In this document: positions 9,016 through 48,884 of the stretch, piece by piece
Position numbering within the stretch: position 1 is the first letter of the stretch
Layout: each line of letters begins with the position of its first letter
DNA from: Octopus vulgaris
Taxonomy: Eukaryota
NCBI GenBank assembly: GCA_951406725.2
Contig: OX597815.1
Coordinates: 121,768,001-121,832,000 of the forward strand
DNA: 64,000 nucleotides
Direction of reading: 5' to 3'
Notes under the pieces: model-generated
Told to the model about the DNA's origin: nothing
Databases searched by the model: none
Seen by the model: the letters and a program-made list of their open reading frames with translations, nothing else
Made by a program: the position numbers and the translations under genes

Positions 9016-9352
9016 GTAATTTTTTTTTGTTTTTAAATTTTTGCCATCTGATAAATAATTCTTTCAATTTAATAACTAATTTAGTTGAATTGTAGATCTT
9101 AGTTGAAAGACTCGACAATTTATTACAGAGAAAATCCCCATGAATTTCCCTCTTTTCATGATATCATTTAACCTAATGAGTAAATTAATGTGCTAAAGAA
9201 AACACCATTGACAACAAGATTCTGAAATACCTCAAAGGAACATAAAAATGCCCTTTGCTTTTAGAATTATTTTATGCTATAAGGATGTTTATTTTTTACC
9301 ATAAAAAATATTATTGTTTAAAAGTTTAAGAAATCATCATCATCTTCTTCAG

Positions 9353-13879: not shown

Positions 13880-15065
13880 CTCCATAAGATGTACTCAGTG
13901 TAAGCTATGGCACATAAGAGGTGCAGTAATATCAAAGGAAGGCTAACTGGAAAGATAATTTTTGTGTGTGGCAAATGCTCATGGGTAATAAACACTGAAA
14001 ATATGCAGAAACAGTTTCTGTCACATGCCAGGGAAAAAAACTAAAGTAGTTGATAGCTTCCATTACCTAGGTGACCAAATCAGGGTGGATGCTCTGAGAG
14101 TGTAGCTACTAAAATAAGAATAGCCTGGGCAAAGTTCAGAGAGCTCTTACCTCTGCTGGTGACAAAAGGCCTCTCACTCAGAGTAAAAGGTAGACTGTAT
14201 AATGCATGTGTACAAACAGCCATGCTACATGGCAGTGAAACATGGGCTGTGACTGCTGAGGACATGTGTAAGCTCACAAGGAATGAAGCCAGTATGCTAC
14301 GATGGATGTGTAATGTCAGTGTGCATACTCGACAGATTGTTAGTACCTTGAGAGGAAAGTTGGACTTAAGAAGCATCAGATGTGGTGTGCAAGAGAGAAG
14401 AATGCGCTGGTATGGTCATGTGGCGAGAATGGATGAGGACAGCTGTGTAAAAAAGTGTCACACCCCAGTAATAGAGGGAACCTGTGGAAGAGGTAGACCC
14501 AAGAAGACCTGAGATGAGGTGGTGAAGCACAACCATCAAATGTTGGGCCTCACAGAGGCGATGACAAGTGACCGAGACTTTCGGAGATATGCTGTACTTG
14601 AGAAGACCCGGTAAGCCATAACCCGGTGCAGCATAACCGGTCTATTTAAGAGTACCCTTCAATCATTGGGCAATAAACTGCGCTTGCAAAGACCTGTTGA
14701 GTCAAGTGAAGTTATTGTCGTAGCCGATGCCAGTACCGCCTGATTGGCAGCTGTGCTAGTGGCACATAAAAAGCACCATTTGAGCACGGTCATTGCTTGT
14801 GCCGCCTGACTGGCTCTCATGCCAGTGACATGTAAAAAGCACCATTGAAGTGTGGTTGATGCCAGTACCACCTGACCGGCCCTCATGCTGGTGGCACATA
14901 AAAAGCACCCACTACGCTCTTGGAGTGGTTGGCGTTAGGAAGGGCATCCAGCTGTAGAAACTTTGCCAGATCAGATTGGAACCTGGTGCATTGTTCTGGT
15001 TTGCCAGCCTTCAGTCAAACTGTCCAACCCATGCCAGCATGGAAAGTGGACGTTAAATGATGATG
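13880..15065 (+). mobile_element. 5'-truncated RTE-clade LINE (ORF2 C-terminus plus 3' UTR)
   Basis: FHYLG, KGRLYNACVQTAMLHGSETW, RMRWYGHVARM and GRGRPKKT motifs, followed by a UTR ending ccatgccagcatggaaagtggacgttaaatgatgatg. Confidence 0.9.
14715..14910 (+). repeat. Three imperfect tandem units (about 60-70 bp) in RTE 3' UTR
   Basis: Repeated gatgccagtaccgcctgac...gtggcacataaaaagcacc. Confidence 0.75.
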
Positions 15066-18563: not shown

Positions 18564-19895
18564 TATTGGGTTATCCTATAAATAATGCATTTTTTTTATA
18601 CTTTTATTTTTCAAAATTAAGATAAAGTTCTTTAATCTAAAATATAATCTCCATTTTCTACAATGCTTTTCCATCTATCTGGTAGATTTGCAAGGCCCCT
18701 TTTTCAAAATTCACTTGTCTGTGATGAAAAATACTCCACCAGTACTGTTCTGACCTTGTCTACAGAATTTATATTTTATCTGTCCAAATGATTCTGAAGA
18801 CTACAGAATAAATGATAATCAGATTGGGCAATATCCAGCGAATATGGTGGGCGAGGTATCATTTCCCATTCAAACTGCTCCAGCCTTTGGAATGTCATCC
18901 TCACTGTATGTGACTGAACATTGCCTTTCATCCTTTCAGGGTCATTAAATTAAGTACCAATTGCGAACTGGAGTCAATCTAATCGACTGCCCTCCTCCCC
19001 AAAACTTTCAGGCTTTGTGCCTAGAGTAGAAAAGATTATCCTGATGGAAGAACACCTTTTGTCTTTAAACCAAAGATGGTCATTTTTTTCTCGCACTGAC
19101 TTAAGCTGCTCACAGTAGATCTTTGTTATCATTTCGTTAAAAAAGTTCAAAGTGCACTAAACCTTTCATAACCCGCCAAACAGATAACACCTTACGTGGG
19201 TGAAGACCTTCTTTAGCCTGGGGTGCTAGTGTTTCTCCTTTCCCTAACCAATGTCTTCGATGCTTGACATTTTTATAGAGAACCCATTTCTTGTCACCAG
19301 TCACTATTCAGTCTAAAAAAGGTTCATTCGTGAGACATTGCTAAGAAGAGCACACATTCACTGTGTGTGATTAGACTTGGAAAGTTTGTAAGGAACCCAT
19401 TGACCCAATTTGCTGACTTTTCCAATGGCACACAGGTGTCGATGAATAGTTGAATGACTAAATCCAAGCTTCTCTGCTAGATTCTCAACAGTTATGATGG
19501 GATTTTGTTCCAAAGTTTTCAGGACGTCCTCATTGAGCTCTACAGATCTAGGACAAGGCTTGTCTTCAAGGCTGTAATTTCCGGCTTGGAATTTCTGGAA
19601 CCATCGTTGATACTGGCTTACACTTATTGCTCAATCCCCATATACTGCATTAATATTCCTCACACTTTCCATTGCATAGTTGCCTTTATTGAACTCAAAG
19701 CAAAATATGCACCTTTGTCACTTCCATTATAGCTTTGAGAAAATAACTGCAACTCTTCAAAACTTCCACTAAGAATAAGGTAAAATTATTACCTGTTTTT
19801 AAAGAAAGTTGATGCAGGTAGTTTATCCCATCCCCCTCCAACTCCCAGTTCATGTAATTGAAAAAAAAACACCTTATTTATGGGATGACCCAATA
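18564..19895 (-). mobile_element. Near full-length degenerate mariner (coordinates include TA flanks) with nested SINE
   Basis: TIRs tattgggttatcctataaataa / ttatttatgggatgacccaata. Minus-strand relics WVPYKL, IVTGDKKW, HQDN and PPYSLDIAQSDYHLF. Confidence 0.85.
18923..19037 (+). mobile_element. 5'-truncated ATT-tailed SINE inserted in the mariner
   Basis: gcctttcatcctttcagggtc...ctttgtgcctagagtagaaaagatt matches the arrays at 9.3-10.8 kb and 30.6-31.8 kb; att occurs on both sides. Confidence 0.8.
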
Positions 19896-20806: not shown

Positions 20807-22382
20807 TAGTGCTATAAAACCACATAATTTAGTTAAAGACAGGAAGAACTTAGAAGCGTAGCTCAGATAATTAGTATCCCATTGTTTCAGTTTGTAAACA
20901 GAATAAAATTAATTTAAAAAGGAACCCAACACATACTTCCAATATAAATTGACTTCTTGATCATGGAATTGGTAGCAAGAATATTATTAATCAATTAATG
21001 GGAAATTTGTTTGATTTTGTTAATATTGAATTTATGTGTGTGTATATCTTAAACTTTTTATTATTTTAACTTAAAACCTAAGATCTAATTAAACACTTAG
21101 GGTAATTAGCAAAAGAGAAATATCAGCAGCACACATTAACCGAAAGAAGATTTGAATTTTACTGCAATCTTTTTGAAATAATCTATATTCTTATACTTGT
21201 TTCAGTCATTCGATTGTGGCCATGCTGGGGCATGGACACTTAACTTACATATATGTTCATCTGGTCGAAAATTAAGTTAAAAGTAAAAGTTTGTATCTTT
21301 GGAAGTATTTTATAGGTTCCCATTTCTTATAAGTTATGTACAATGCTGTAAATAAACATATCAACTCAGTATAATATATAAAAAATAAGAACAAAATCTC
21401 TAATACAGTAATTAAACAAATATAGCAATTAGAGAAATTAACATTTATAATAAATTATTTCTAATCTCAAAGTTACAAAATTCTCTTGCTTTAAAAATGT
21501 GTTAAAACTATAAAAAAAAATTTAATTTTTTTTTTTCCAATTTTTAAAAAATTTTTAATTTCAATGATCATTTTTCCTCCCTCCTTGTTCTGAGTGAGAA
21601 TTAGTATAGCAATTGATAATGCCATAGATATAAATTAGATGAAATAAAATAAGCTGTTCAATAACTGAACAAAATTTGTAATCACACTGATAACAGTAGC
21701 CAATGTGCTAAATACAATAGTGACCCCCTAACTTTACATGTCACATAAACAAAACTGTTTGCTAAAGAAACTTTGTTAATTTCTGCCTGAAGTTTTATTT
21801 ATTTTGTTAAAGGAGGGAGGTATAGAGGAGAAAAAAGTAGAAATATAAAAAATTTTTTGCATATCACAGATCAACTGCTTATTGGTTTTTCTTTTTCTTT
21901 TCTGAATGAAGCCATTGTAGGGTATGAAAATAGGACCCTGTGGAAGTTTTAACATCTAACTTATTCCAGATAGTATTATATTGTTCTTTGCCAAATCCAA
22001 AGTAAAAAAAACAAAAAAACTAGACTAGTGTATCTTGTACATCAGTGCAATGCTTATAAAACTCTCTCATCCCTTTTTACCTCAAAAGAACTATTTAATA
22101 TACAAGACATACAGATCTCTTCTTTCTCTCAACAGCTTATTTCATACACTGTCGGCAGCAGACTCGGCTCTGATCTTTTCAATTTCTTGTATCACCTTAG
22201 AGAAGGAAGAAGGATTTTCAACATTAGTTTTTGCATGAAAAAAGGTTTTTGATGGATTTGATAATTTAGATGAAGAATGAAGTAGATATGAACTGTCTGA
22301 ATAATTAATTCAGCAAGACAAAAATCACTGGATGGTGAACAGCCTAAGTGTTTTGGCATTAAAAACTGGACTGGTAAACTGC

Positions 22383-22544
22383 TTAAGGTTTTGGTGGCTT
22401 TGAATTCCTAAAAAATGTCCTTCTTTCATTCGAGACTGAATATTGGGTAGGCAGAGAAAATGAAGCGGGTTCTGATGTGGATGAAGCTCTTTCAGAAAAC
22501 CTGCCTGTTATGTGATTCAGAGCACGAATAGCAGTGCCATTTTT
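22383..22544 (-). CDS. MYLK: MLCK terminal exon, second half of calmodulin-binding helix and short tail
   Basis: Long pyrimidine tract plus ctttag acceptor, phase 0. KNGTAIRALNHITGRF...SKPPKP-stop completes ARRKWQ-KNGTAIRAL (smooth-muscle MLCK ARRKWQKTGHAVRAIGRL). Confidence 0.85.
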   Translation of the reverse strand, partial: KNGTAIRALNHITGRFSERASSTSEPASFSLPTQYSVSNERRTFFRNSKPPKP

Positions 22545-25500
22545 CTAAAGCAAAAAGAAAACAAAAAAACATCATGCAACACTCAACTCAAAATTAAATA
22601 AAACAAAGTAAAGAAAGACAAAACGAAAAATAAAATAAAGAAAAAACTGCACAAATATTTTTAGTGTTCAAAAATACAACAAACAACAAAGTGGATTATT
22701 ATTGTTATTATTATTAATAGTGCTGAATATCTTAACAACAACAATTACATAATTCATAATGTATATTCAATAACAGACTCCAATGAAGCTACTAAAACAT
22801 CTTGAAAGATGATAGACAATCAAAAAAATAATCTTTTATATGACAATAAATTATTAGACTTGGTCTTTATCTTTGGAGACAAAACATTTTATTTAAGATT
22901 TACATTGAGATTATGTTTAAATCTGTTTGACGTCCAATCATCATCAGATGTATTGTTTCCTGGACACACTTTTATACTTTTACTTGTTTCAGTTATTGTA
23001 CTGTGGCCATGCTGGGACATCACCTTACAGGGAAGGGTTTAGAGCTAATCAAATCAATTCAACTACTTTTTTTTTAAAGTTTGCTACTTATTTTATCAGT
23101 CTCTTTTTTGTTAAAATACTAAGTTACAAGGATGTATACAGACCAACACTAGTCATATAGCAGTAACACATACACACACACAAAATATTAAACTTGAATT
23201 AAGAACCCTTATTTCTAAGCTAGGGATAGTAACAGTTTTATCCTCTAGCCCACTGACAAATGTATAATATATGTTACACTTTAGCATATTTATATTTCAG
23301 TAAGAACACTAATATTAAGCTTATCTTAGTAGTGGGTTATCAGTGAGCCTTGGATATTTCCAAAGTTCTTACGATGGCTCTTTATTAAATATGGAAGTTT
23401 CATTCTATAGCAAGATATGATTTCCTTTCTCACATCAGAAAAGTACAATTTCTATGTTTACCTTTTCATTTTTACCTTATAAGATTTTTTTTATAAAATG
23501 CATAGAATATTATCTATACAAGTCTTGTGTTATAACTATTAATTCTGGTTGGAAATTTTCAAAGTGTAGCATAGATGTATATATTTTAAAAAGTAATGCT
23601 TCATCTCTGAAGATGAGGTCAATAATCTGGATAATGATAATCAAATTAGAATGGACTAAGCAGGGCAGGAGCACACACAATGACGGAAAGTGTTGCTGAT
23701 GAGGTCACAGATGAATTAATTACCAATAATTCATCTCAGACATTTTCATATAAAATCCTTTTTTAGTCTTACTTTATATTACCTGTAATCATCATCATTT
23801 AACATCCATTTTCCATACTGGAAGGGCTGGACAATTTTTTCAGAGTCTAATAGGTCCAAAGAATGTAGTATGCTCCAGTGCCTGCTTTGGCATGGCCTCT
23901 ACATCTGGATGCCTTTTCTAATGCCAACCATTTTAGTGTGAACTGGGTACTTTTCTTCCATGCCACCAGCACTAGTGGATGGTAGAGATGAGAGGAAGGA
24001 AATTGGGTGAAGGGCCCAGTTGCACATGTATACACACAGCTCTAGTAGAACTCAGTTTTGTCAAAATGGACAAGTCTCCTTCAGAACTGAACACTGCCAA
24101 TCATCCCAGTTCTTTGTCATCACCCCCATGAGATCATCTATCACCATTTAGTCTCAATTCTACCTGGGTCTTCTTCTGCAAGCTCCATTCACATTAAATG
24201 ATCAGCATGATAATTTTACAGTTCTTTGAAAAGCAGTTCAATATTTAATTTGTCCAATCCATACTGAGTTGTAATGTTTGTCTATTTAAAAGCTGAAATG
24301 GTAAAGAAGTTCAGTCTACAATAAGATACCGGGTTCAATTCCATTGCATGGTATCACAGGTAATCATCATTTTTACCATGACTTCAGGTCAATCCAAGAC
24401 TTTAGAATAAAATTGATAGAGGGGAAACTGTGAAAAGCCTGTCAGATGGATTGTACCTGGAAGTCAAGGATCTATCCTTGTCACACAGTGATACGCTGAT
24501 TCTAATTGAGAATTACATTGAGGGTACATGTGTCTGTGGAATACTCAGCCACTTACAAGCTAATTCAATGAACCAGTAGTTGAGCTGATCAAACAACCAA
24601 ATATTCATTACTGAAATGAACACTAGTTCATTTATTTAATACCGTTAATTCCAAAGCTATGGATATTTAGTTATTTATTTGATAATTATATTAGACAAGT
24701 AGGAAGGAGTAGCACAATTGATACACCCTCTCCTCCCACCCCCGCACAGGCATGAGCAATGTCGGTGAATGTCAAAAATATGAATGAGACAGCCTGATCG
24801 AAATGCTGGCAATAAGTTGTTATAGGTCATGAAAATATGCCTCACAATCATCATAAAATATTCATTTATTAAATTAAGGAGACCTACATATTTTGTGATG
24901 CTAATCGTTAAGAATTATTTTCACAAAATTTGGTTTGTTTTACTTCAAAAGATAAACTTTCAATTTATTTCTAAAACATTAATTTCTAAGAATTATCTAA
25001 AATGTCATCTACTTATTTCATTACTAATTAATAAAACATCTTTCGTAATTGATTTCCCTGTCAGAGAATTACTATTACAACTACGAGAGATTTCATACAC
25101 TCTTTTTCAGCACACTGAGGTACGAGTTCTCTCCCTTGAAAGTACTCGTCGTTAAATCTAAATAGTTTTGGAGGGGATTTTTTTCTATCTTCACGTTGCT
25201 CAACATTTGAATGTAAAACAACAGAACATAGAGCAACAATATGATTAATATTCTCTCTGTCTCTCTCACCCTCCCTCTGTGTGTGTGCGTGTGTAAAAAA
25301 TTCTTTTTTAGAATTGGTCTTTGAAATACATACAAAGCTATCATTAATAGCATGTAAGTATTGGTTTGAAAAACCCTTTTGGATTAAAAAAACCCAGAGT
25401 ATGCATAGGATTCGAACTCACATACCCTGTAGACATGATGGGCGTTCTATCAATAGTACCAGAGCAATACTTTGAAGTTCTCTCAAAAGTTTATAAATTC

Positions 25501-25854
25501 TTATGATGTCAACTATATATATATCCACATATATCCTCACTAATTATACACAGAGAAAGAAACTTATTGAAAATAAAACAAGTTATCTGAGACAATAATC
25601 ATTTAATCTTACACACATTTGTGTGACCACATCCCTATGTTTTCCTGTTGTTCAAGTCTACTCAACTGAACTGAGTATGGGCTGGTTGGTGTTGTGGCCA
25701 TCTCCATCCCACCAGCTGTCACATACTGGATGTTCTGCAGGTCAAAGGGCAAGGGGACTGAGAAGGTGTCTATGCTTATGACTACATAAACACTTAAAAC
25801 ATTAACTGAAAGCATGGTACATGCAATCAAGTCATACTTGTACACAACAGTGTG

Positions 25855-26016
25855 TGTGAAGCAGCTGTATGGTAAGAATTTGCTTCCAAATGGCATGGTT
25901 TCAGATACAGCTCCACTGTGAGGCATTTTGGGAAAGTGTCTTCTATAGCCCTGGGCCAACCAATGCCTTGAGAGTGGATTTAGTAGATGGAAACTGAAAG
26001 AAGTCTGTTGTGTATA

Positions 26017-26050
<34 letters not shown>

Positions 26051-26268
26051 ACTTATGTGTGTTTTTCTGTGTTTATGTTTGTTCTCCCACAACATAGACA
26101 ACTAATGTTGGTTTGTTTACATTTCTGTAACTTAGAAGTTTGGCAAAAGCAACCAATATAATAAGTACCCGGCTTAAAAAAACAAAATATACGGGGGTCA
26201 ATTTTTTCTAAACCCTTCGAGACAGTGCCACAGTATGACCGGCCTAATGACTAAAACAAGTAAAAAAG

Positions 26269-26270
<2 letters not shown>
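25855..26270 (+). mobile_element. OR-type SINE
   Basis: Colinear with 17459-17835, including central (TG)(TA) tract. Confidence 0.8.
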
Positions 26271-26303
<33 letters not shown>

Positions 26304-27917
26304 ATAATTATAAATTTTAATTAAAATTTTATTATTTAAAATTTTACTTATAACTTCCTAAAAAGTTATCATTGGAAGTAAAATATTTTTGTAAAATTAA
26401 AACTATCTCTGCATCTATATTTCAATATTTTGTCTTGATTTTATATGTGAAAACATTGCTGGTTTAACTGTTTCCATAATTAACTGGAAAATTATAAAAA
26501 AAAAAAATCAACTGACTTCTACACCAAAATAAATATCAACGCCACTGAAGTGAAGCAATGTATAAAATGCTTGTTCATTTACATTCAAAATCTAATCTCC
26601 TGAATGTTTGAAGCATAAAAATATTATTTAATCGATTAATGACTAAAATCAGTGTTTCTCAACCATTCATTCCTATCTTACATAGGGGAGGGACTCTCAT
26701 AACTATTCAATATCTAAAAACTCCTCTCATATTTTAATGATTAAACATTATAAGGAAAATTTTAGCAACAAAGTCTTATATGGACCACCAAGAGCTATAT
26801 GGAGCCCAGTTGAAAATATATTTTTCACCAGTTAAAAGTTGATAAACCTTTAATATTCATTTGAAATTGTTGCACTTTTAGTATCAACTTGTAAATACTT
26901 TGTAATTCATATGCATATATACTATGTGAGTGTACATGTGTTTGTGTACATACACACATGCATATAACCAATACACACACACACGTGTGTATATATGTAT
27001 AACCGCACCAAGGGCAAAACAGAGTAAACTCAACTTTTGATAGAAATTACACATACATATGCATGGAGATTATATAGACGGGGGAAGGGGGGGGAAACGT
27101 AGGTATACATAAGCATAACACCAAAGTTATAATACTTAATTTATTAAAATTATTAGCACATTATATTAGTAATATGCTAATAATTTTCGATAATTTCAGT
27201 ATCATTAATCATAATACATTTATCATAACTACAATAAAACTTTTATTGTAACTTAATTTTTTTTTGATAAAAATAAAGGAGTATTGTACACGTTTTCTTT
27301 TTTCATAACTGTATACCTACTTTTGCATCATCCTGTGTGTATATATATATATGTATATATATATATATACACATACACACACACACATACATACAGAGAG
27401 AGTCTGCTGACCTGTCCACAAGGCTGTGATTTTTTTGGGATATGAAACCTTTGGTAACTCTATGACCAGAATTTAACTTTGTGTTTCAATAATTACTGCT
27501 CTATTCTTTAGAGTGTGCCTTTTTTCTGATATATGTTTCATTGACTATGTGTATATCCAGTCATAGAGTGACCAATGGTTTCACATACATAAAGCACTTA
27601 GTTCCATAGAGACAACTCATCAGACCCCAATGGCCATGAGTACACAACCTCTCTTTTCTGTCTCCAGTTTGAAGAGAGGTTATATGCCTGCAGCCATTGG
27701 AGTCTGATGTGCCATTTATAAAGCTTAAGCACTTTATGGATGCAAAACCATTGGTCACTATATGACCGGACATATATTTAACTTCATGTAAATATATTAC
27801 TGCTCTAACTTTTAGAGTGTGCTTCTTTTTCGGATATATGATCCGCTGTGATGCAATACATGGATGCATAGAATCATCTGGCTATCACAAAAAGCATTTG
27901 TAATGGACCCAGCTATT

Positions 27918-28330
27918 ATAGGAGTGGCTGTGTGCTAAGTAGTTTGCTTACCAACCATATGGTTCTGGGTTCAGTCCCACTGCATGGCACCTTGGGCAAG
28001 TGTCTTCTGCTACAGCCTCAGGCCAACCAAAGCATTGTGAATGGATTTGGTAGAAAGAAACTGAAAGAAGCCCATCGTGTATGTATATATATATATAGAT
28101 AGATATAGATATATAGATAGATGGATAGATACATTTGTGTCCGTTTGCCCCCCTCCCATCATCATTTGACAACCAACCGGTGTTGGTGTGTTTACATCCC
28201 TGCAAAAGAGACTGACAGAATAAGTACTAGGCTTGTAAAGAAAAAGTCCTAGGGTCGATTTGTTCAACTAAAGGTGATGCTCCAGCATGGCTGCAGTCAA
28301 ATGACTGAAACAAATAAAGGAATAAAAGAA
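27918..28330 (+). mobile_element. OR-type SINE
   Basis: Close match to 17459-17835. Confidence 0.85.
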
Positions 28331-28458
28331 TAATCCAATATGGAGGAGTATAATGTAGAGTTCTATGCAGCTGATATCCAAGAGACCCACTCAATGAAAT
28401 TATTTCATGAGGAATACATAAAACGTCAGAAACCCGAGAGATGAATGTATTAATTTAA

Positions 28459-28622
28459 TCACTTAATATCCTCAGGATTATGGCCATTTCAGTCTTCATC
28501 GTGTAATCATTTCAGTGTATAATAAAAACTATTTTACATGTTGGCACTAATATGCATGCTATGCATTGTACAATACAGTTGTACATTTATGAAATGGTTG
28601 TAATCCTAAGGATATCAAATGG
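28459..28622. mobile_element. Short TTAA-flanked MITE with about 35 bp TIRs
   Basis: tcacttaatatcctcaggattatggccatttca vs reverse complement ccatttgatatccttaggattacaaccatttca. Confidence 0.65.
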
Positions 28623-28947
28623 TTAAATAAATATATTCAACTATGTCCGGTAAGTTCGGTGTCATCAATTCACTGTTGTTTTTTACCTCCCAATAAAATA
28701 GTTTTTAACTAGTAATGGTGAGATACTATTGATATATTTTCTCGGTAAACTTTCCTCATGGTGAATTGATGGTGGTGAACTCTCCTGCAATGAATTGATA
28801 GTGGTGAATTTATAATCAGATTCACCTCTCACACCTCCTGACTTTTTAAGGTTTAGTCCTTGATAGCATAGTGGTAAGTATCCCTGACTATCATGTAAGA
28901 GGTACAATGGGTATAATTTCCCTTCAAAGGCGGCTCATTATTTGTAG

Positions 28948-29350
28948 GAGTAGGTATGGTTGTGTGATTAAGAAGCTCACTTTGAAACCGCACGGTTTGG
29001 GTCCAGTCCTACTGTGCAGCACCTTGGACAAGTGGCTTCAAATATAACCCCAGGGTGACAAATGTATTGTGAGTGAATTTGGTAGATGGAAACTGTGTGG
29101 AAGCCTGTTGTGTGTGTGTGTGTGTGTATTTATGTGGATGGGTGCACCCTTGTTTGCCCTACATCCACTGCTTGACAACGGATGGTTTGTTTACAACCCC
29201 ATAACTTAGCAGTTTACCAAAGAGACTGAAACAATAAGTTCCAGACTTAATAAAAAAAAATAGGTACTGGGGCTAATTTATTCGACTAACATTCTTCACA
29301 GTAGTGCCCCAGCATGGCCACAGTTCAACGAGTGAAACAAGTAAAAGAAT
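28948..29350 (+). mobile_element. OR-type SINE
   Basis: Colinear with 17459-17835. Confidence 0.8.
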
Positions 29351-29357
29351 ATATAAA

Positions 29358-29410
<53 letters not shown>

Positions 29411-29833
29411 CTACATATGTGTATATAGACACATGTTTAAATACAAGTATAGGTGTATGAAAACAAACACGCTGAAACATATATATCATTACAGTAGCTG
29501 AAGTATTGCAAATAGAAATAAGTATGACTAGAAGACAACTACAACCCAGGAACCCAGCAAGATTAACACCCAACACACACACACTTAAAAATAATAAATA
29601 ATCATCTATTATATCAAAAGAGTCAAGACAACTTACAGACGTTTCGAAACATCAATAATTCTCTCATTTTATAAACTACACAATTTCTACAGTGATTGAT
29701 TAATGATAGAAATTATTTAGCTCCTAACTAAAGAAAAAAAAACTGTCTTTTTCAGTTCAGTTAATTTGATGTAGATGAATATTGATTTGTTACTAAGGCA
29801 AAACACACAAATTAATAGCAAAGGTGGAGGTGC

Positions 29834-29834
<1 letters not shown>

Positions 29835-29887
<53 letters not shown>
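29835..29887. repeat. (TA)n microsatellite
   Basis: Pure TA run. Confidence 0.95.
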
Positions 29888-29889
<2 letters not shown>

Positions 29890-30559
29890 TATAACGTATA
29901 CATATATATATGTATCATATAATGTATACAAGATGGATATCTATTTTCTTAAAAACTTTTTACAAAAATTCCCAGTATAAAATTTCCATCAAAAACTAAT
30001 AATAGAAATATCACAATGAAGAACAATTAGCTTGCTGAATTTTTCTTTTCCTTTTTTTTTCTCTTCTTTGTAATTTTCTGTAAATAATATATTATGTTTG
30101 TATGTGTTTTTTTTCTTTTGACTATATATTTATTTACTACAGTAGACCATGTTAATTAGGAAAACTAGTCACATAGTTAAACAACAACAGCAATATAAAC
30201 AAACAAATCGAACATCATTATACAGTTGCTATATAAATACAATATTGCCTCAATACAAAAAATTCAGCTTCCAAAAGCAGATGAAAATCAAAGTATTACA
30301 GCCATGCGTGATGATCAAAGGTTACAAAGAAAGATTTGAACAACAGTGCAAGGCAAATAGATAAAGCAAACAAAAACAAAACAAAATAAAAATGGATAAT
30401 AAAAAAAATTTCAAATAAATAAGGATAAAATCATGCTAAATGCCAGGAAAAGAAAATATTGTCATTCCAACTTAAAGTAGAGAGACAGGAATAGAATCCT
30501 TTAGTTAAGACATTAAGACCTCGTTTGTGTATAAGGAGGATGCAGAGGAAGTAAAAAAA

Positions 30560-31775
30560 TCCTTTTTATTAAAGGCACAAGGACTGAAATTTCGGGGGTG
30601 GAGGGGGCCACTAGTCAATTACATCGCACCCAGATTTAAGCTGGTACTTATTTTATTGACCTCAAAAGAATAAGTTGACCTCAGTGGAAATACCACTAAG
30701 TATTTTGTCCCGCGTGCTAACAATTCTGCCAGCTTGCCACCAATAATAACAAGGCCTGAAATTTGGTGGGAGTGGGAGGGGGGCAGTCAATTAGATTGAC
30801 CCCAGTACACAAATGGTACTTAATTTATCGACCCCAAAGGAATGAAAGGAAAACTTGACCTTAGTGGAATTTGAACTCAGAATGTAGTGACAGGTTGAAA
30901 TACCTGCGAAGCATTTCATCTAGTGTGATAGCAATTCTGGCAGCTCGCGGCCTTTCTGCCAACAATGATGGTGATTTCAAATTTTGGCACAAGGCCAGCA
31001 ATTAAGTGGAGCGGGAAAGTCAATTGCATCAACCCCAGTATTCAACTGGTACTTATTTTATCAACCTTGAAAGGATGAAAGGCAAAGTTGACTTCAACAG
31101 AATTTGAACAAAATGCCACTAAGCACTTCACCCAGCAGGCTAAGGATTCAGCCCACATGCCACCTTAATAATAACAATCCCTTCTACTAAAAGTACAAGG
31201 CCTGAAAGCTGGTGGGAGGGGGACAGCTGATTACATCGACCCCCAGTGTTCAACTGGGGTACTCATTTTATCAAAACCAAAAGAATGAAAGGAAAAGTCG
31301 ACCTTGACAATTATAATAACAATCCTTTCTGGTGAAGGCACAAGGCCTGAAATTTGTGGGGAGGGGACTAGTCAATGACACTGACCCCAGTGTTTCACTG
31401 GTACTTAATTTACTGACCCCCAAAAGAATGAAAGGTAAAGTCAACCTTGGCAGAATTTGAACTCAGAACACGAAGACAGACAAAATGCCGCTAAGCAATT
31501 TTGCCCACTGAGCTAACGATTCTGACAGCTTGCTACCTTAATAATAATAATAATGATGATGATAATTTCAAATTTTTGCCACAAGGGCAGCTTGGGGGAG
31601 GGGATTAAGTCAATTACATCGACCCCAGTGCATAACTGGTACTTATGTAATTGACCTCAAAAGGATGAAAGGTAAAGGTGACCTCAGTGGAATTTGAACT
31701 CAGGACATAAAGACGGATCAAATATCACTAAGCATTTTGTCCAGCATACTAGCAATTCTGAAAGTTCACCAGCTT
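30560..31775 (-). repeat. Head-to-tail array of about 6 copies of the same SINE family
   Basis: Reverse complement of the same unit, separated by aataataa tails. Confidence 0.88.
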
Positions 31776-32399
31776 AAAAACTGCTTTATTGGGGATAGCA
31801 AGGATTTAGAGATTGGTCCCTGGATGTTAATTATTGTAGAAGATGCCTGTGAGACCCTTGACAATAAGCTATTATCTGCTCTTACAGAATTAACCAGAGC
31901 AAGTGAAATTGAGAGCTCTGAAAAGTGAAATGAAAATGATAAAGAATAAAAAGAAGATATACTGTGTTGGTTTCAGCCAAGTGCAGGGTGGTCATGCAGA
32001 GAGAGAAGGAGACACAAAGCTTGTGATTTAATCCCAATAACTAACTGCTACTTATCTTAGTGATAAATGAAAGATGAAAACAAACTATCAGCAGGATTTA
32101 AATGCAGAAACATGAATGGACAAACCAGATAAAGTATCTAATCTATTTTACAACTCACTACACAAGTCCATTATTCTATTGATGGAAAATGAAATAAAAA
32201 ACAGGCTCAAAATAAATGAATCCTATACAAGGAGGGATATCAAAAGAAAGCTCGACTAAATTGTACTCTCAGTTTATATAATTTTCTACAATTATTCATA
32301 TAAATCAAGTATTGCTTGTATCAGTTCCATGCATATATATATATAATCACCTTGTTTCTTTTTATTCTCAAGTTAGACCAAGTTTATCAATATCATGAT

Positions 32400-32760
32400 C
32401 ATCATTTTAATGCCCATTTTTCCATGCATGCATGGGTCAGACAGAGTTTATTGAAGTAGATTTTCTATAACTAGATGCTTTTCCTGTTGTCAACCTTCAC
32501 TTCTTTCTAAGCAGAATACTGAAAATGAATGATACTGCTTGGATGACAGTGACACTCATTTAAACTACCATGTGATGTCAGGACGGACACACACACTCAG
32601 GATGAGCTTGTTTCAGTTGCCAATCCCCGCAATCCACTCTCAAGGCTTTGGTTGGCCTTGGGCTATAGAATACACCTGCCTAAAGTGCTATGCAGTGTGA
32701 CTGAACTCAAAACCATGTGGCTGGAAAGTCAACTTCTTAACCACACAGCCCTGCCTGCAC
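32400..32760 (-). mobile_element. SINE with OR-type head and RTE-type 3' tail
   Basis: Head matches 17459-17600 in reverse; tail ttttccatgcatgcatgggt...gatgct matches the RTE end. Similar copy at about 48885-49267. Confidence 0.7.
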
Positions 32761-34419
32761 CTTACTCAAATCAAATATCATCAACTTATTCTTTGTAGTT
32801 CATGCGGTAATGGTGGAACCCAATCCTTACAATCAAACCAATGAAAACATAGTTACTAATCGGTTTTCCATATTTACTGACACCATATGTCAGTCACATC
32901 TCTCAACAGAAGTGTCACTGTTTATTAGTGATAGAGTGAATTTGAATTCAGACAACATAAAGTCAGAACACATCACAACATGGCATCCTGGCCAATGTTC
33001 TAACACTTCTGCCCATCCCACACTCTAGATTAATATTTTCTTTTATTAAGCCACTAAAATGATGACAAGCAAAATTGTCCTTAGCAGGATTTGAACAACA
33101 AGTGTAAAGAGTCAAAACAAACACCCCATGGTATTCTGTCCAGAACTCTAACAGATCTATCAAGTCAGCATTAATTGCAACAAATCCAATCATTAATTGC
33201 TGATATTTATTCATCCAATTAGTAATAATGCAACTTGTTCTCATTATATCTTGAGTAGCTTCATAACACGTGCAGATAACTCTTGATCTGCACACTTTAC
33301 AAGTATTTAAACCTGTTTGCGTAATATAGACTATGATCAGTCGGTTAGAAAATTAATGCTAAAAGTAATGAGTAAGAGGAGATATAATTAATGTGTGTGT
33401 AATGATACGTGAAATCCATAGTAAAATAGATATTTATATCACCACACAAAAGAGAAATTGTTTCAAATTGTAGTAGTGAAAGATAGAGGTAACAAAAGGG
33501 ATCTGAAACGTTTACAAGGGAGTAATCATTAGTGTCACTCACAAGTGAATGTGATGTGGTAGGGTAGCATCTACCATGTGTTCATCAGTTGATTTAGGTA
33601 CCCCAAAAGTTGCAAACTGACACAGATACACTGTTGTTGTCTCCCTTACCAACCCAGTAGAACATCCAGGATGTGACAACTGAATGGAGAGAGAGAGATA
33701 TATATATACTGACACTTGGTTGGTATCCATTTCAGCTTAGTGGACTGGAACATGAAATGAAGATCTTCCTCAAAGACCTGATGCACCATCCTGTCCAGGA
33801 GCCAAACCCACAATTTTATGATTATGAACCCAATAATCTAACCATTACAACATAGGCATTCACAGAAAAGTAAATACAATTTACTATATGCAGATCAAAT
33901 TTTTTGAAGCTATGAAAGTCTAGAATGAAGGCAGGAGGAGAATTAAATTACTGAGTACTATTAGAGATGCACTGAGAATGGGTCACATAATCACTAATTG
34001 AGTGAATATCAAGAATTAGTGATTAAACTGGTTGTAATTAATGTGAATAAGTACAACAGATGAGAGTAATCAGAATAAGCTAGAGAATAAGAGACAAGGT
34101 TATATTCATATAACACGTCATCTATGATAGCATTAGCAATAAGTATGAAGAGAAGAATAAAAAAATTAAGGATACTGACAGGGTCAGAACACAATCTTCA
34201 GTTGGTTAAAAAAATATTTTTAACTAGGACTGGTTTAAAAAGAAATATCAGTTTTTCCTTAGTAATTGCTAAACAAAATCCATTCAAACAACATCAAGGG
34301 AAAGGAAAATCTCTTTTGTTGCATATTATTTAGAAAATACAAGTGTGAAAGTATCATGTGATATAGAAAGTTCTGTCTAATTTTCAATCTTTATTTAATA
34401 ACACAAAGATGATATTTAA

Positions 34420-34637
34420 CCCATTAACATTTAAACCAGTCATATTAGGCCCAAATATTTCCCCATTTTTATCTTCAAACTGGCCAGATCTGGCCTCACA
34501 CTTCTACCCTACAATGTCATTCTAAAAATAAACAATTGCAACATTGAAATTTTTATGCTACAAGATAATGCACAATTAATTCCATGACAACATAAATAGC
34601 TAACCATATTTGATAGAGGAATCTAAATGCTAAAGAG
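34420..34637. mobile_element. piggyBac-type MITE, family 1
   Basis: TTAA flanks, internal sequence matches 8404-8641. Confidence 0.8.
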
Positions 34638-34699
34638 TTAAAACAGAAAATTTAATCATTTATATAATTTTGTCATTTTCTGTAACCTATCTCCATTTA

Positions 34700-35700
34700 T
34701 TTGTAAGTTTGCCTGATTTCAAGAAGTTCCTCCAGTTTTTAGTTTAAAAAAACTTTAATTCATTTTCTATGTCTTCCTTCCTGCTGCCCACACTTTTCCT
34801 ACTTTTAAAGTTGAAGTTTGATGGAGCAAAGTCTGGAAAATGTGGAAGGTATAGCAGTTTTACTCATCCAAATGATTCCAGAACATTCTAAGTGACATGT
34901 TGTGTGAGGTCAAGCATTATCTTAATGAACACCCCTGTAATTTATTACAGCAAGACACTTTTTTACTCAAAGAAGTCTTCAAGTGGTGAAGCTGCTGAAA
35001 ATAGATTCCAGATGTGGTCGTTTGATTTTACCTTAAAAACTCATAATTCCTACTATATGCCACCAAACAGAATTTTCCTTGGGTGAACTCCCCACAAATA
35101 GATATGGTACAGGTTTTTGATTTGGCATTAGGCAGTGTCTACGGTGCTTAATATTGTTGTGAAGAATCCATTTCTCATCTCAATGGATGTTAAATGATGA
35201 TCATCATCATGAGTTATGATCCTATTTAAAAATGGTGCTTGCCGGTTATGCATATCGAATGATGGTTCACAGCAGTAAAGTTTTTGCTGATGATTTGCTG
35301 CTGTCAGAGAATACAAAAACCTACTCTTCCACACTTTGAAACTTTCCCTAGTGTCTTCAAATGATTATTGAATGTTCATAATGCTAACAATAAGTTCAAT
35401 GAAAAGTTCTCTTACTATCACAGTGAATGTCACTGCAAATATTGCCTCCAGTATTTTATAATCCAATTTGGAAGGATGGCCTGACCTAGGATTATCAAGC
35501 AAATTGAAATTGCCACATCTGAATTTTTCAATCAACCTTCTGCAAATTCATTCACAGCATCTTGACCATAACATTTTTGGTTGTTTTGCTTGCGTTAGAA
35601 CAATAAAGATTGTAAAACATAATGCAACAAATATGTTCTTTGCATGATTCCTTAATGGATTCATAAAAAACTAATATATGAAAATATTGTTGTTGCTATA
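34700..35700 (-). mobile_element. Highly decayed mariner relic
   Basis: Minus-strand FPDFAPSNF (YSPDLAPSDF-like), DNA-PH-like and FLNRIIT motifs. Boundaries approximate. Confidence 0.6.
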
Positions 35701-35911
35701 TAGTGACTCTTCATGAAAAGCTTATGCATCAGTATTTATGGCTTTTTGGGGAGTGAAAAAAAATAGTTTCAATAGGTTCAAACTCCTAATCAGACAGAAC
35801 TTTCTACACAACCTGATATTACAATAAGGTTTCATGCAAACCATGCAGAAAAAAAAACATTTCAAAATAGCTAATGTTAACAGCAATGAATTTAGACAAG
35901 TTATCTTGCAT

Positions 35912-35950
35912 TTAATAAAAGGAATTGGAAACAATGGCATTCATGACTTT
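35912..35950 (-). CDS. MYLK: Candidate alternative MLCK terminal exon (KVMNAIVSNSFY-stop)
   Basis: Phase-0 AAG acceptor with weak pyrimidine tract. The K-x-x-x-A-I register matches KNGTAI and KTGNAI. Confidence 0.4.
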   Translation of the reverse strand, partial: KVMNAIVSNSFY

Positions 35951-36326
35951 CTTCAGAGTTTTAGGTGATTAATGTAAATGAAAGGTTCTAGATGGGAAAC
36001 TAAAATCAAGCTGAGACATGAGAAGGACCTAGCATTTCACTTATATACCAGTTGTAGTAAAAGCAGTTTAAGGACACCAATGTAAGGACCCTAATGATTT
36101 CTCGTTTCCTAGGGTGATAATAGCTGAGGGTGACAAACTAAGAATCTTAACAAATGGGTAGAGGGAAAAATGAGGAAAACAATTACACAGACACCTGCTT
36201 ATTTATAAAATAAAAAGGAAGCAGAGTTAAAAGTTGGAATTAAATAGCCACCAGAATTTTATAGAAAATGAAGTTGTAGGTAAGAGGTAAAAGCAGTAGT
36301 TTATAGAGAATCCTTGGTTGTAATAC

Positions 36327-36476
36327 CTTCCATGTAACCTGTTCATTGTTGTGTCTATTAACAGATGGTTGTTGGTTGAATTGACGAGGTTTCTGATCTT
36401 GGTGAGTGTGCCCCCCATTCATATAGTTTGTTCTTGAGGGTCTTCCTCCAGCTGATTGGAAAGAAGCAGCTGGTGC
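36327..36476 (-). CDS. MYLK: Candidate alternative MLCK exon inside the calmodulin-helix intron
   Basis: ctataaaag acceptor, AAG|gtatta donor, 150 nt, phase 0-0, non-repetitive sequence. APAASFQSAGGRPSRTNYMNGGHTHQDQKPRQFNQQPSVNRHNNEQVTWK. Confidence 0.5.
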
Positions 36477-38221
36477 CTTTTATAGATGTAGTAGATAAAT
36501 GGAACACAAATATAATTTCTTTTCTTTTTTTTTTTTAATAATGAAATTTTTTCCAATGAAAAGAAAAATATAACTTAACTTGAAAAATCTGAACTGTGAA
36601 AAAAACAAATCTTACCAATATGGTACAATCATTCAACAAATTTTCAGGAATTAATCATTTTGGAAAGGACAATTAGTAAGTAGCAGGTACTTTGGAGGAT
36701 GAGAAGAAATAAATTAAAAATTGAGATTTTTCAAATATTTTGTTTGAAAACAAAAGTGTAAAAAAAAAAAGGTGAATGAAGATGAACTTGAAAATTACAC
36801 AAGGAATAACACTATGCTAACAAATTTCAAAGGTTTGAAATTGTTATTTAAAATCTAATATTTAAAATTTACTTTTGCATTTAGACAGTCAGACATAGAT
36901 ACACAGATAAGATGAATTGGTAGAGTTATTGCAGCATGCACTAAAATGCATTGCTATATATGTTTTGGCTCTCTGCTTTCTTAGTTCAAATTCCACCAAG
37001 GCCAGTTTTGTCTTTTATTCTTTTGATATCAACAAATAATGTACCAGTGGAAGGGAGCATTGGTGCATCCCTCTCTCCAACCAGCAGTCACATCCTGAAT
37101 GTTACACTAGATTAAGGACCAACGGTATTTGTGTTTGCTTGCAACTACATTGGGTGCCTAAAACCATTAGTTGAAGTATGGTACATACCAATACCAAGTT
37201 ACACTAGACTGTGAGAAATGGTTACAAATATACATACAAACATACACACGTCTATATCTACACATGCACACACACACATAGTTGTGTGAGTATGATTTGT
37301 AACTAAAATCCAAACCATCTGCCACTGCCACATCTAATTCCCCCAAGTGCTTCCACAAATGACGCCGTTATTTTGTTTTCAAAAAATAGTTGGCAGGATC
37401 ATGTTGCAGAAGAAGTTATGAAAAATACAAACCTACCAAGCGCAAAGTGTATTCACCTCAAATGCAACTGCATTGGACTGGAGCCAATGATGACACTTTT
37501 TTTGCAATCATCCACTCTGCTAAAATAGTAGCTAAATCTATCAAATTACACCTTACAGTCTCAAGAAACGAAGAACATATTGGACAATGTAGTCAGGCAT
37601 ACACTATGCCTTAGAAAAAGAAATGGATGGTAAATGTTTGAATGTATTTGATCAAGGATTAACTTAGTCAGGGCTGAGTTAGGGTTGTGCAATATTATAA
37701 ACTGAATAGGGCTGAATGAAAAATATGTTCCCAGAACAGCTTGGTCTCATGAAATAAGTATAGTGAGCAAGCCTAGGGTGTACAGAAATATCAATGAACT
37801 CAGGTGATATTCCTCACTGACAGTTATCAACAGAGATTGTCACATCTAATGTTAAAAAGAGCTACAAGTAACATGTTCAAGATGTCACCCAGCCGCCCTT
37901 CAAAAATACAAGGTGGAATGAAACAGCAATTTGAGAAGGTAAAGGACTTGTGGCAAGCCAAAGAGAGCATCAGATTCACCCTGCATAAAAAACAGCAGGA
38001 GATGCACCTCCTATATTTTCCCCTTTAGCTGTAAGAGAGCATGTTGAGATTAACTGGCCATAATGTTATAGTCTTGCAAGGGAGTAACTCACTACTATTA
38101 ATATATTTAACTTTCATTTCTCTTTAGCACTTAATTGAAAATCTGTGGTTAGAATGATACAGATCTGACAAGTATGATATATTGTGGTAAGCTTTTTTTT
38201 ATTGAGAAAATTCTAACTCAC

Positions 38222-38348
38222 CTGCCATTTACGTCTAGCAATGAAGTTCTTTAGTTTGTCCGTACTGAGGCGTTTCATACACTGGTTGTCCACATGATCA
38301 AGAGCTAGCCATTCATGTTGAAGACACATATGAATAGTCATACGGTTT
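38222..38348 (-). CDS. MYLK: MLCK exon, kinase end plus autoinhibitory segment and first half of calmodulin-binding helix
   Basis: tttcag acceptor, CAG|gtgagt donor, 127 nt, phase 2-0. NRMTIHMCLQHEWL...LSTDKLKNFIARRKWQ. Confidence 0.93.
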
Positions 38349-39949
38349 CTGAAAATTTAAATTAAAATATTACAATTTTTTTATTTTTTAGTCTGAGGAA
38401 GTGTGACAGTGCCTATAACCTTTACAGGCTCTCTCAGGTTAGTGAGTTCAATATGGCTGATGTACAGCTTGAACATTATTTCTAGGTAAATCCAATAGAA
38501 AGGATATGGATAAATAAAAAGACATAAGGGAGTACTTTGTATAGAAATTGTTGAGTGATCCACAGTGGATATGATAAACAGAAGGCAAACAGGCATCTGG
38601 TGAAATGGTGTAAAGCACTTCAGAAGAAACACAAAACATAAACTTTAGTAAAAACAGGATAAAAAAAGATAATGATGGAGGAGCAATTACATGAAGTAGT
38701 TATAGAATGTTGTTGAAAAGTTCTTTATCAGTCTGCTGGCTAGCTCTTTTTGGATAGTCTCAGAACTTTATGAATGTAGCAGCAGTGTTGTTATTGGATA
38801 TCTGAGAAATACATTAATAATCAGGGCCAAAATACTTCCTGAGCCTGAAGAAGTTTAGTATATTGGATGCAGTTTCAAATTGTTAAAAAATAATCAGAGA
38901 TTGTGTGGCCTAGCATGTTACCATTTTTGAGGGTTTTAGCCATGTTGTTCATAAGCAAGGAAGGTGGAGTATTTTAAGATTATTTATTTCAGTAAATAGT
39001 ATATGTAACATTTGCGTTTTGGTGTTATTGATAGAGATTAAGTTAAGCTCCCTATTGAAGGATTTTTCGGTGGTGGTCTTTGATAATAAAAATGCACTAG
39101 ATGACACCTGTATGCAGAAAGTTCAGCAGAAGTAATGTGTAGTTAAGAATTAACAAGAGAATGTGTGGGAGATGCACATCTTCCATTAAAAGATGAGTGT
39201 GGAAGACAAGATAGACACCAGCTGATAGAATAATATAGACTAGAGAGAAAGCCATTAATGCATGCTGCAACAAAACAGTCTGATATGAAACATCCCCAAG
39301 CCAAGAGATAGATGGCAGCCACAGATTAACATCTTTGCTAAGAGATTATCATATCAGACACTCGTATAAACACTACTGGTGTTAAAGAGCAACAATAGTT
39401 CTTTCACTGGTGTTCTCAAGGGCAGGGGAGTACTGGAATCATTTACCAACATTCTTTATAGTACTTTGTAGATATTAGATGAAAGAAGGGAAAATAGAAA
39501 TTTTACGATTACAAAGAAAAATTTACCTCAAATATTTCTCAATTTTATAATATGACTCTAGTAGCATATAATATGAAGTGGGAGAATTAAAAGTAGTTTT
39601 TCAAATGAAAATAAAAATTGGATTTACAGTAGTAACTGACTCAATTTTATTGCCCAGTCTAACACCAATGCCTGGTATCTTGGAGGGCTTTAGTAGTGAG
39701 TGAGAGTTCACTGTTACAAGTACTCAGGCCTGGGTCTCCAACTTGAAAACACCTTCTTCACTTACTCCCTCCCACCAAGATTCAAAGGGCCTGTAAAGGA
39801 TCATGGGTACAATTTTCCCTCCTAATTAAAAAAACTGAAAAAATAAAACATGACTGTAATAAACAGACGTTAATTTCAGATTTACTAAAAAGAAATCAAA
39901 TGATAATTATGGGATTGATTTTAATTAAATTCTTGTATTTATCACTTAC

Positions 39950-40102
39950 TCTTTTTTCTTTACTAACAACTTGGAAATAAAATCTTTTGCAGCATCTGAA
40001 ATTTCATCAAAGGTTTCATCATCAAAGTCATAAACTGCTTGTGTGACATTGGATAATGTTTCAACATTTGTTTCTCCAGTGAAAGGAGCCAGTCCAGAAA
40101 TA
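39950..40102 (-). CDS. MYLK: MLCK kinase exon (C-lobe)
   Basis: tttcag acceptor, gtaagt donor, 153 nt. ISGLAPFTGETNVETLSNVTQAVYDFDDETFDEISDAAKDFISKLL. Confidence 0.95.
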
Positions 40103-40204
40103 CTGAAACGATAAAAAAATAAGTTAAACAAAAAACAAAATGATAAATAAACAATGACAAATTGCTGAAAGATAAAGTTATTACTCAGATTTTTAAAACA
40201 AGTT

Positions 40205-40412
40205 TACTTTTATTTATTTCAGTCATTTGACTGAGGCCATGCTGTAGCACCGCCTTTAGTCAAATAAATTGACCCCCCACCCCGGACTTATTCTTTGTAA
40301 GCCTAGTACTTACTCTATTGGTCACTTTTGCCAAACTGCTAAGTTACGGGTACATAAATACACCAGCATTCGTAGTCAAGTGATGGTGGGGAACAGGCAC
40401 AAATATACTAAC

Positions 40413-46568: not shown

Positions 46569-47638
46569 CTGTACAATGGAAAGAAAATTATGATTTTTCT
46601 TTTTTGAAATTTCAACATCATTTTATAAAAAAGTAGGACAGACATCAACAACAGTGAAACAATACACAAACATTTTGACTTAGGTTCAGTCATTATTAGT
46701 TGACATTTTAATTGCTAGCTAAGAAAAAAGTATTTTTTTTTGCAACCATAACATAGTACAAAGTATATTAAAGTCAATATTGTGCCTTACTTTTGTGTTA
46801 GCAGTGCAAGGTTATCATTTTAAGTTTATCTCTACAAATTTTCTACAGAGTTCACATTTTATCATTAATTTTGTATATGATTGTAGGAGGGAAGAAATTT
46901 GTAATATCACTGTCTGAGCTATTTGTAAGGAGTTATAATGAACTAGTAATAAGTGCAATATTAAACAGTGGCCAATTAAAGCAGTCCAAATAAGAAGAGA
47001 ATGAAGTAGGTAAAATAAATGCATGATTTAAATAACAAAATAATATATAACAAATTGTGTAATAACAGCAGCTTGCAGAAAAACATAAACGACATTAAAA
47101 TTGGTGGGTAAAAAATATTTCTACAACATAACATAACAGGGCAAAACACAATGGCATTTCATTACAAAGCAAAAAGCTACTCAGGAAACATAAAACTTGT
47201 TTTCTGGTTAAAATTTATCACACAAGACTAAAAAGCAATGTCTGTGAAGAGTAATTAAGCCAGTAATTTAGGCCTATCAATCAGGAAAAAGAAATAGATA
47301 AATGACACTTGTGACTTTTGTAAATCACTTTTTTCTTTTAAAATACTCCAGTTAAAATATAAAACAAGAATGCATTTTTTTCTTTCATTTTAGAATATTA
47401 TCAAAATTTCTTGTGTTGAATAAAACAGTGAAATTTGAAAAAATGTTTCCTACAGTTTCTCTTTGATAAAGAAAAAAATGAAGATATTATTAAAGCCCAT
47501 CTAAAATTTTGAAGTAAAATAACTGATTTAATTTATTGATACAAGTCTATCAAGTCCACTACTTTCCCTTCATCTTCTCTAGATGTTCTAGCTCAGCTCA
47601 GATGCCATGTTTTCTCTGAGTATTGATTATATGCTTAC

Positions 47639-47782
47639 CTTCAACAACCAATTTAACAATGGCACTGTCATTGCCCAATTTGTTAGTTACAACAACATTA
47701 TAGGATCCTCTATCAGTTGGTAGAGTGTTTTGAATTGTAAATTCACAAAAACCAGGCTTATTTTCTATTATAAGTCGATCAT
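47639..47782 (-). CDS. MYLK: MLCK exon, C-terminal half of Ig domain
   Basis: ttgtag acceptor, G|gtaagc donor, 144 nt. DDRLIIENKPGFCEFTIQNTLPTDRGSYNVVVTNKLGNDSAIVKLVVE. Confidence 0.9.
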
Positions 47783-48884
47783 CTACAATAGAGTATAGAA
47801 TAGAAACATAATATACAATAAAATGGTACAAGTTTACTTTAAAAAGAAATACACTGATCAAATTGAAGATGAACAATGAGTTTTTATATGGTTCAAAAGG
47901 CGAACTACAAATTCGTGGTGGAAGGACTTTACGCAATTTAATGAACTCCAATACATGCTTGGTACTTTATTTATCAATCACAAATAGAAGACAAATTTGG
48001 ATGGATTTGAATTCAGAACAAATTGAAAACTTGAAGACATTCAATAAGTAAATAGTTCTAAAGGCAAAACATACATACATAGACAGATATACACACACAC
48101 ATACACACAGACAGTAAAGCTTAATCAAAACAGTTGACAAGAGAAAGAAAGTAATACTATACACTCAGATATTAAGTTGACAAAAAGATTATCTTTTTTT
48201 GATTAAAAAAAACTATATTAGCAACAAAGACTGACAGGAAACAAACAAGTAAAACTAACAGAATAAACAATTATTTCAATAATACCATCCATTGTTCCAA
48301 GCCCAATACACTCCATACATAACACATTAATATCTAGAGCTACACAAATACTGCGTCAGACAGAAACTATTTTATCCTAAAACATGACATCTCACTAAAA
48401 AATAATACAATAAAACAAGACAGTTAAACAACATAAAACATGACAGTTCAGATGTTTAACATATTCATCCATCTTGCTCATTGATATTGCTTTATACCAT
48501 TATTCACAACAAATATATAAGTAAATAAGAATGCAATACCTCACAAAAGAAGATGAAAACTATTGCTTTTAAAAATAAAAAACAAAACAAATTTCTCAAA
48601 ACAGATGTCAGTCTTAAGTCAGTTTTCATAATATTCAATCAACACTTAAAAAAAAGAAGCTTAGAAAGACAGAAATCATAGATTGTTCTATCATTCTTTT
48701 ATTGGTTTCATTCAGTGGACTGTGGCCATACAGGAGCACAGCTTTCAAGAGTTTTAGTTAGTTCTATTGACCTCAAAAATTTTAATAACCTTAGATTAAA
48801 GAGAAGTAACCAGGATACAAAAAATGCAACAAAATATCTTTTTTTTTCTCTTTACTTATTTAACCATTCCTGTCAGCATTGTTT

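Follow-up and report, generated by a model that had tools for sequence, protein, structure and literature searches.

Alternative splicing inside the calmodulin-binding helix of an octopus myosin light chain kinase

Introduction

Drosophila Stretchin-MLCK is reportedly a single myosin light chain kinase (MLCK) gene with several differently regulated isoforms, as the title of Kojima et al. 1996 (PMID 9077439) has it, and one of these is said to be independent of calmodulin (CaM) through splicing of the regulatory domain. Splice site C of PMCA lies in the CaM-binding domain, and splicing there alters autoinhibition as well as the kinetics with which CaM activates PMCA (excerpts of PMC12693652 and PMC8428515), while DRP-1β, a DAPK2 splice form and a CaM-regulated kinase of the same branch as MLCK, has lost CaM control by splicing (excerpt of PMC3050894). 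In mouse mylk1, intron 27 separates exons encoding the CaM-binding domain and houses the telokin promoter, according to an excerpt of PMC10533999. Here we describe an Ig-containing MLCK gene on the minus strand of a 64,000-nucleotide stretch of the Octopus vulgaris genome (contig OX597815.1, positions 121,768,001 to 121,832,000; hereafter the window), in which splice-site choice falls within the CaM-binding helix.

The excerpted part of PMC2116294 places autoinhibition and CaM recognition of chicken non-muscle MLCK in adjacent, coupled stretches, and reports that changes in the recognition stretch of chicken MLCK alter CaM recognition and do not lift autoinhibition.

Results

Splicing alternatives lie inside the CaM-binding helix of octopus MLCK. 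Five Octopus clusters comprised 23 sequences, all automatic annotations, and the 21 that reach the junction are used as the denominator throughout. Eleven include a 150-nt cassette exon and two a 138-nt version of it, four splice directly to the last exon and four use a distal acceptor; each of the 150-nt, direct and distal forms is found with all three Octopus species labels, the 138-nt form with two. The features concerned, in window coordinates, are as follows.

38222 to 38348, minus strand: constitutive exon encoding the end of the kinase domain and the autoinhibitory segment, ending in RRKWQ (first Trp anchor) at a phase-0 donor; spliced to the exon at 39950 in read runs X1 and X2.
22545 to 38221, minus strand: intron inside the CaM-binding helix, 15,677 nt, or 1,745 nt, cassette and 13,782 nt when the cassette is used; same position in the paralog on contig C7.
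36327 to 36476, minus strand: 150-nt in-frame cassette exon of 50 residues, ending Trp-Lys in register with KNGTAIRAL; seen in 11/21 models and an X1 joint (38221/36475), and used in a CaM complex model.
36327 to 36338, minus strand: 12-nt stretch encoding VTWK, between a short donor (after 36339) and a long donor (after 36327), carrying the putative replacement Trp; the 138-nt form occurs in P0122 and P0008.
22383 to 22544, minus strand: last-exon coding sequence between the proximal acceptor and the stop, with KNGTAIRALNHI as the second half of the CaM helix (Ile at position 14); ends 17/21 models, in direct and cassette forms.
22142 to 22195, minus strand: distal acceptor at 22195, 349 nt into the last exon, giving a 17-residue acidic tail, VIQEIEKIRAESAADSV, without the second anchor; 4/21 models, three species labels.

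An initial annotation of this DNA had proposed a splice switch at the CaM helix, to be operated by alternative last exons that bring a new second half. The switch itself holds, with four outcomes in the models and a cassette junction in one read library (uncovered in the other), so that the 38222–22544 junction is one of several; its proposed last exons (KVMNAIV and TFIASK) have no support, being found in 0/21 models and at no joint listed in two presumed RNA runs. The coordinates of all its candidates are correct on the sequence. Among them was the 150-nt frame-preserving exon, present in the models and in a spliced X1 contig; the second donor at 36339 and the distal acceptor at 22195 are both additions to it. 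What the splicing swaps in is thus a first half-helix rather than a second one: an internal cassette, ending in Trp-Lys, that supplies a new first anchor, alongside a distal acceptor that yields an acidic tail.

In the direct form, the kinase is followed by a basic amphipathic 1-14 CaM helix with Trp at position 1, Ile at 8 and 14, and a charge of +5. In the cassette-150 form, represented by P0004, the cassette end VTWK runs into KNGTAIRALNHI, such that Trp1029 occupies the place of the RRKWQ Trp, with Ile again at 8 and 14 and a charge of +3 over the site. Judged from the peptide, the 150-nt exon puts a putative new Trp anchor in exact register at a distance of 50 residues from the autoinhibitory segment. 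The cassette peptide is polar (7/50 large hydrophobic residues) and falls between the two original anchors, with Pro at position 4 after the first Trp and a polar stretch, and the first site therefore cannot stay canonical. Use of the short donor removes the new Trp and leaves Glu at the anchor place; in the distal form, positions 8 and 14 hold Glu and Ser, respectively. A complete 1-14 site is thus present in the direct form, re-formed in the 150-nt form and absent from the 138-nt and distal forms, and all four forms retain the segment upstream of and including RRKW.

The cassette is identical at 50/50 residues between O. vulgaris and O. bimaculoides models, the rest of the protein at 1038/1081; such identity would be improbable for neutral DNA (p about 0.003, assuming an intron divergence of 4.6% taken from X18, another organism). 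TGG stands at −6 to −4 of 13/915 GT sites in the intron. An origin of the cassette as an exonised repeat was rejected, as a search that skips common words found the cassette itself and, beyond that, no more than two 33-nt matches, both outside it; a VTW resemblance between the cassette and the P0012 tail, reached by 367/2000 shuffles, was likewise dismissed.

Read contigs were examined over 33300–40300 in four of 24 listed runs: X1 and X2, which are presumed to be RNA, both display spliced joints and differ in organism code, and X18 and X20, which come from other organisms. In X1, a spliced contig joins 38221 to 36475 with CT..AC ends on the plus strand. Its bin depths of 45.6 and 6.0, compared with 45.5 and 6.0 expected for the long donor (1.9 for the short donor), fit a cassette that extends to the long donor, and just three contigs (constitutive, intron and cassette) are enough to reproduce the X1 depths, with 37.1 seen against 37.08 expected. 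In X2 the constitutive joint is present, the depth of the cassette bin is 0, and a contig stops exactly at 38222, the last exon base; extra depth in this run would fit junctions leading beyond 33300–40300. The cassette junction is seen in one of the two presumed RNA libraries, and X1 looks cassette-only and X2 cassette-free. X18 has no coverage over the cassette. High-copy interspersed repeats in introns, at 34467–34550, about 36810–37280 and 40207–40300, produce depth piles in all four runs.

Modelling paired residues 1012–1050 of P0004 with a calmodulin that matches the one encoded in this genome at 129/129 compared residues. The complex scored 0.63, compared with 0.06 for the best of three controls; the score mark is reached by 51/78 solved pairs and 2/108 mismatched pairs. 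At least 87% of contacts coincide between model runs, and the partner pLDDT (predicted local distance difference test) is at least 60. In the interface, which spans 1025–1046, Trp1029 contacts CaM residue 125 in the C-lobe and Ile1042 contacts residue 52 in the N-lobe. The model supports a predicted binding of calmodulin to the rebuilt site of the cassette-150 form.

Ten exons of the gene were mapped in the window, from 60632 to 22386. A Pfam search found a Pkinase domain of the MLCK-branch Ser/Thr type and N-terminal Ig I-set domains at 60375–60650 and 47601–47966; the best PDB match for P0138 is MYLK4 (E 8.6e-91), and models named MLCK and labelled Octopus vulgaris match the kinase exon at 100% identity. 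The intron in the helix is in phase 0, with a CAG|GT donor after 38222 and a TAG| acceptor before 22544, and is the longest gap among the mapped MLCK exons, in keeping with the initial annotation, which had also picked KNGTAIRAL at 22544 as the best family-like continuation (24.1 bits, 9.6 for the next). The intron contains 816 AG sites, 25 of which survive a simple acceptor filter, and candidate exons consequently need outside evidence. A simple exon scan and a Pfam search of intronic open reading frames found no nested plus-strand gene, with nothing above E 0.05.

The position of this intron within the CaM helix is old and already known: an octopus paralog has its intron there, and in the mouse gene an intron separates the exons for the CaM domain. 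In the paralog, which is on contig C7, RRKWQ is likewise followed by a phase-0 donor, and the likely continuation, KATNAMVAL, lies 2.2 kb on. Of the non-cephalopod homologs, 40 carry the motif; 31 of them keep to the family pattern beyond it and nine diverge exactly at the split point, as would be expected for an exon boundary with variable or mis-called models. In the Mytilus, Haliotis and Patella models P0018, P0020 and P0023 the second half-helix is lost right after RRKWQ; errors of annotation could account for this, or else a splice switch shared more widely among molluscs.

Direct splicing is found in 5/5 other cephalopod-like sequences. The search for cassette relatives outside Octopus found none among nine candidates (three matches, all Octopus), which is weak evidence, and a search for further C-terminal variants in other cephalopods returned the same eight proteins and nothing more.

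The octopus tail after the split is 53 residues long, with no telokin-like Ig domain beyond it. The peptide read from the distal acceptor weakly resembles the C-terminus of P0012, a homolog that splices directly (19/1000 shuffles, best of three frames). At 22142–22385 (minus strand), the 3' untranslated region of the direct form still holds a frame-shifted stretch similar to the tail of P0012, which is longer and in frame. Faintly, this suggests that the octopus tail may have been shortened, its old C-terminal end now being reached by the distal acceptor alone.

A scan of the intron for splicing motifs gave nothing firm. Two TGCATG elements at 35833–35847 (minus strand), about 480 nt downstream of the cassette, are a mere hint: two were seen where 0.2 were expected in a 300-nt bin, one of many bins and motifs tried, and ten occur across the intron. 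We take TGCATG to be an RBFOX-type motif with a role in splicing. Another copy lies 34 nt upstream of the proximal acceptor, at 22573–22578 (minus strand), and from there could bias the choice between proximal and distal acceptors.

Two related kinases were found elsewhere. The MLCK-like paralog on C7, near 54.54–54.57 Mb (L011–L013), is 62% identical on the test exon, and its tail is short, as in arthropod homologs such as P0030; a kinase of the MLCK/DAPK branch near 122.21 Mb on C2 (L014–L015), some 400 kb away, is 55% identical on the same exon. Within the window, the 3' exons of an RBR/Ariadne-like E3 ligase gene (2750–12424, plus strand; weak Pfam Ariadne match, E 0.07), presumably ANKIB1-like, converge on the MLCK 3' end. 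An open reading frame fragment at 14075–14512 (plus strand) looks to us like the end of an RTE-type LINE (long interspersed nuclear element) reverse transcriptase, and mariner-like fragments lie near 3580–3810 and 19358–19630.

Discussion

We lean towards a mechanism in which splice choice in the CaM helix sets how well Ca2+/calmodulin switches the kinase on, with isoforms that differ in the relief of autoinhibition. The direct form would join a canonical helix (Trp at 1, Ile at 14) to the autoinhibitory segment. In the cassette-150 form, CaM would bind a displaced and loosely coupled site 50 residues downstream, from which it would pull poorly on the autoinhibitory segment; activation would be weaker, or its Ca2+ threshold higher. 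With no Trp in the 138-nt form and no second anchor in the distal form, both would be short of a full site and stay mostly autoinhibited. A set of isoforms (canonical, loosely coupled, and without a complete site) is suggested because all octopus forms keep the upstream stretch and because changes in the chicken recognition stretch spare autoinhibition. Tissues could then vary the calcium response of the kinase through splicing; here, as with kinase activity, we infer beyond the exon, junction and register that the models and reads display.

Several observations weigh against this mechanism. The 21 models may not be independent of one another or of the window. Over the stretch covered by the read contigs, no read junction was found for the direct, 138-nt or distal form; the runs comprise two presumed RNA libraries and contigs lose rare forms, so that absence from contigs is weak evidence. 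The partner in the CaM model is a peptide, a class outside the tested range of the method, and may pass by its likeness to solved complexes of CaM with MLCK peptides; 14 of the 22 interface residues belong to the ordinary second half, and the model may therefore pass without the new Trp. The 50/50 identity of the cassette is not above the protein average (p 0.08–0.22; 5/22 windows are also 50/50). Finally, TGG occurs at −6 to −4 in 3/50 AG|GT sites of the intron, which puts the chance of an in-register Trp at 1.4–6%.

A more far-reaching version of the proposed mechanism, possible but on balance doubtful, is that an anchor-relay exon evolved in octopods, cutting the CaM helix, rebuilding a full CaM site 50 residues from the autoinhibitory segment and bringing a 12-nt donor switch by which the new Trp is dropped. 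A single gene would in that case yield a normal kinase, an uncoupled CaM-tethering kinase and two CaM-deaf kinases, with near all-or-none switching between tissues.

The frequency of TGG at such sites also speaks for a rival in which the splicing is real and has little effect on CaM control, the insert looping out or acting as a linker for docking or phosphorylation, with the in-register Trp there by coincidence. The finding of the cassette only in Octopus among the nine candidates and the direct splicing of the other cephalopod-like sequences are in line with this, and the cassette form, being the commonest model, may be a working kinase. We nevertheless consider it unlikely, as the insert lies between the anchors with its Pro at position 4, leaving no canonical first site, and the second donor deletes exactly the four residues that bear the Trp.

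Could the broken helix instead weaken autoinhibition, making the cassette and distal isoforms Ca2+-independent and constitutively active? The Drosophila gene, with its reportedly CaM-independent isoform, offers a precedent. DRP-1β, too, loses its CaM domain by splicing and yet phosphorylates myosin light chain (excerpt of PMC3050894). All four octopus forms, in contrast, keep the segment through RRKW, and the constitutive activity of chicken MLCK arises from mutations in the upstream segment, as an excerpt of PMC2116294 describes. With those mutations mapped to octopus residues by alignment, we regard constitutive activity as quite improbable.

The last exons of the initial annotation fare worse.

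35912 to 35950, minus strand: candidate KVMNAIVSNSFY-stop, unsupported; 0/21 models, an unspliced X1 contig only, no X2 cover past 35948, borderline profile.
33884 to 33919, minus strand: candidate TFIASKNLICI-stop, rejected; rank 438/499, an unspliced X1 contig and, in X18 and X20, two changes that turn its Lys into Gly.

With a profile from 22 homologous continuations, 499 open candidates were ranked and 150 simulated introns served as the null; 22544 came first, and KVMNAIV second over eight residues and fourth over 12. That KVMNAIVSNSFY is a rare alternative last exon bringing a new second half of the helix is very unlikely: it is present in the sequence, its region is single-copy, it resembles KATNAMVAL of the paralog, it places Met, Ile and Tyr at 5, 8 and 14 after Trp-Gln in a 1-5-8-14 pattern, and only 3/150 null introns match it over eight residues, but 50/150 do as well over 12, its AAG acceptor is weak (though that of the cassette is likewise AAG), none of the joints listed leads to it and, although 82 joints lie outside the listing, the bin depths cannot accommodate a further contig. 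TFIASKNLICI-stop was ruled out by its profile rank, its absence from the models and the Lys to Gly change in both other-organism runs.

Through the splice choice in the CaM helix, one can ask in concrete molecular terms how a single myosin kinase gene could give octopus muscles or other tissues calcium responses that differ. The choice also amounts to an experiment made by nature on a question of long standing: whether, in CaM-regulated kinases, CaM must bind beside the autoinhibitory segment to release it. The isoforms were already in the automatic annotations; a literature search, with most subscription journals outside its reach, found no account of their meaning and no cassette that re-supplies a first CaM anchor in register together with a donor that removes it.

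Among known systems, the a and b variants of PMCA exchange the tail. PMCA is a calcium pump and octopus MLCK a kinase, alike in having a splice site within the CaM-binding domain; the excerpts of PMC12693652 and PMC8428515 contain no cassette rebuilding the first anchor in register. Vertebrate MYLK shares with octopus MLCK the RRKWQ/K-x-G-x-A-I-R helix and an intron between CaM-domain exons (excerpt of PMC10533999), but the vertebrate intron holds a promoter for a separate protein, telokin, whereas the octopus intron holds an in-frame cassette with two donors. In DRP-1β the entire extra-catalytic part is replaced and nothing is inserted in the helix, unlike the insert in octopus MLCK; and in comparison with Drosophila Stretchin-MLCK, the octopus gene keeps the autoinhibitory segment and the first Trp in all forms. 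Splicing in or over a CaM domain is therefore already known from PMCA site C, DRP-1β and Drosophila MLCK, and what appears to be new, as far as our searches reached, is the in-register anchor cassette combined with a donor that deletes the anchor.

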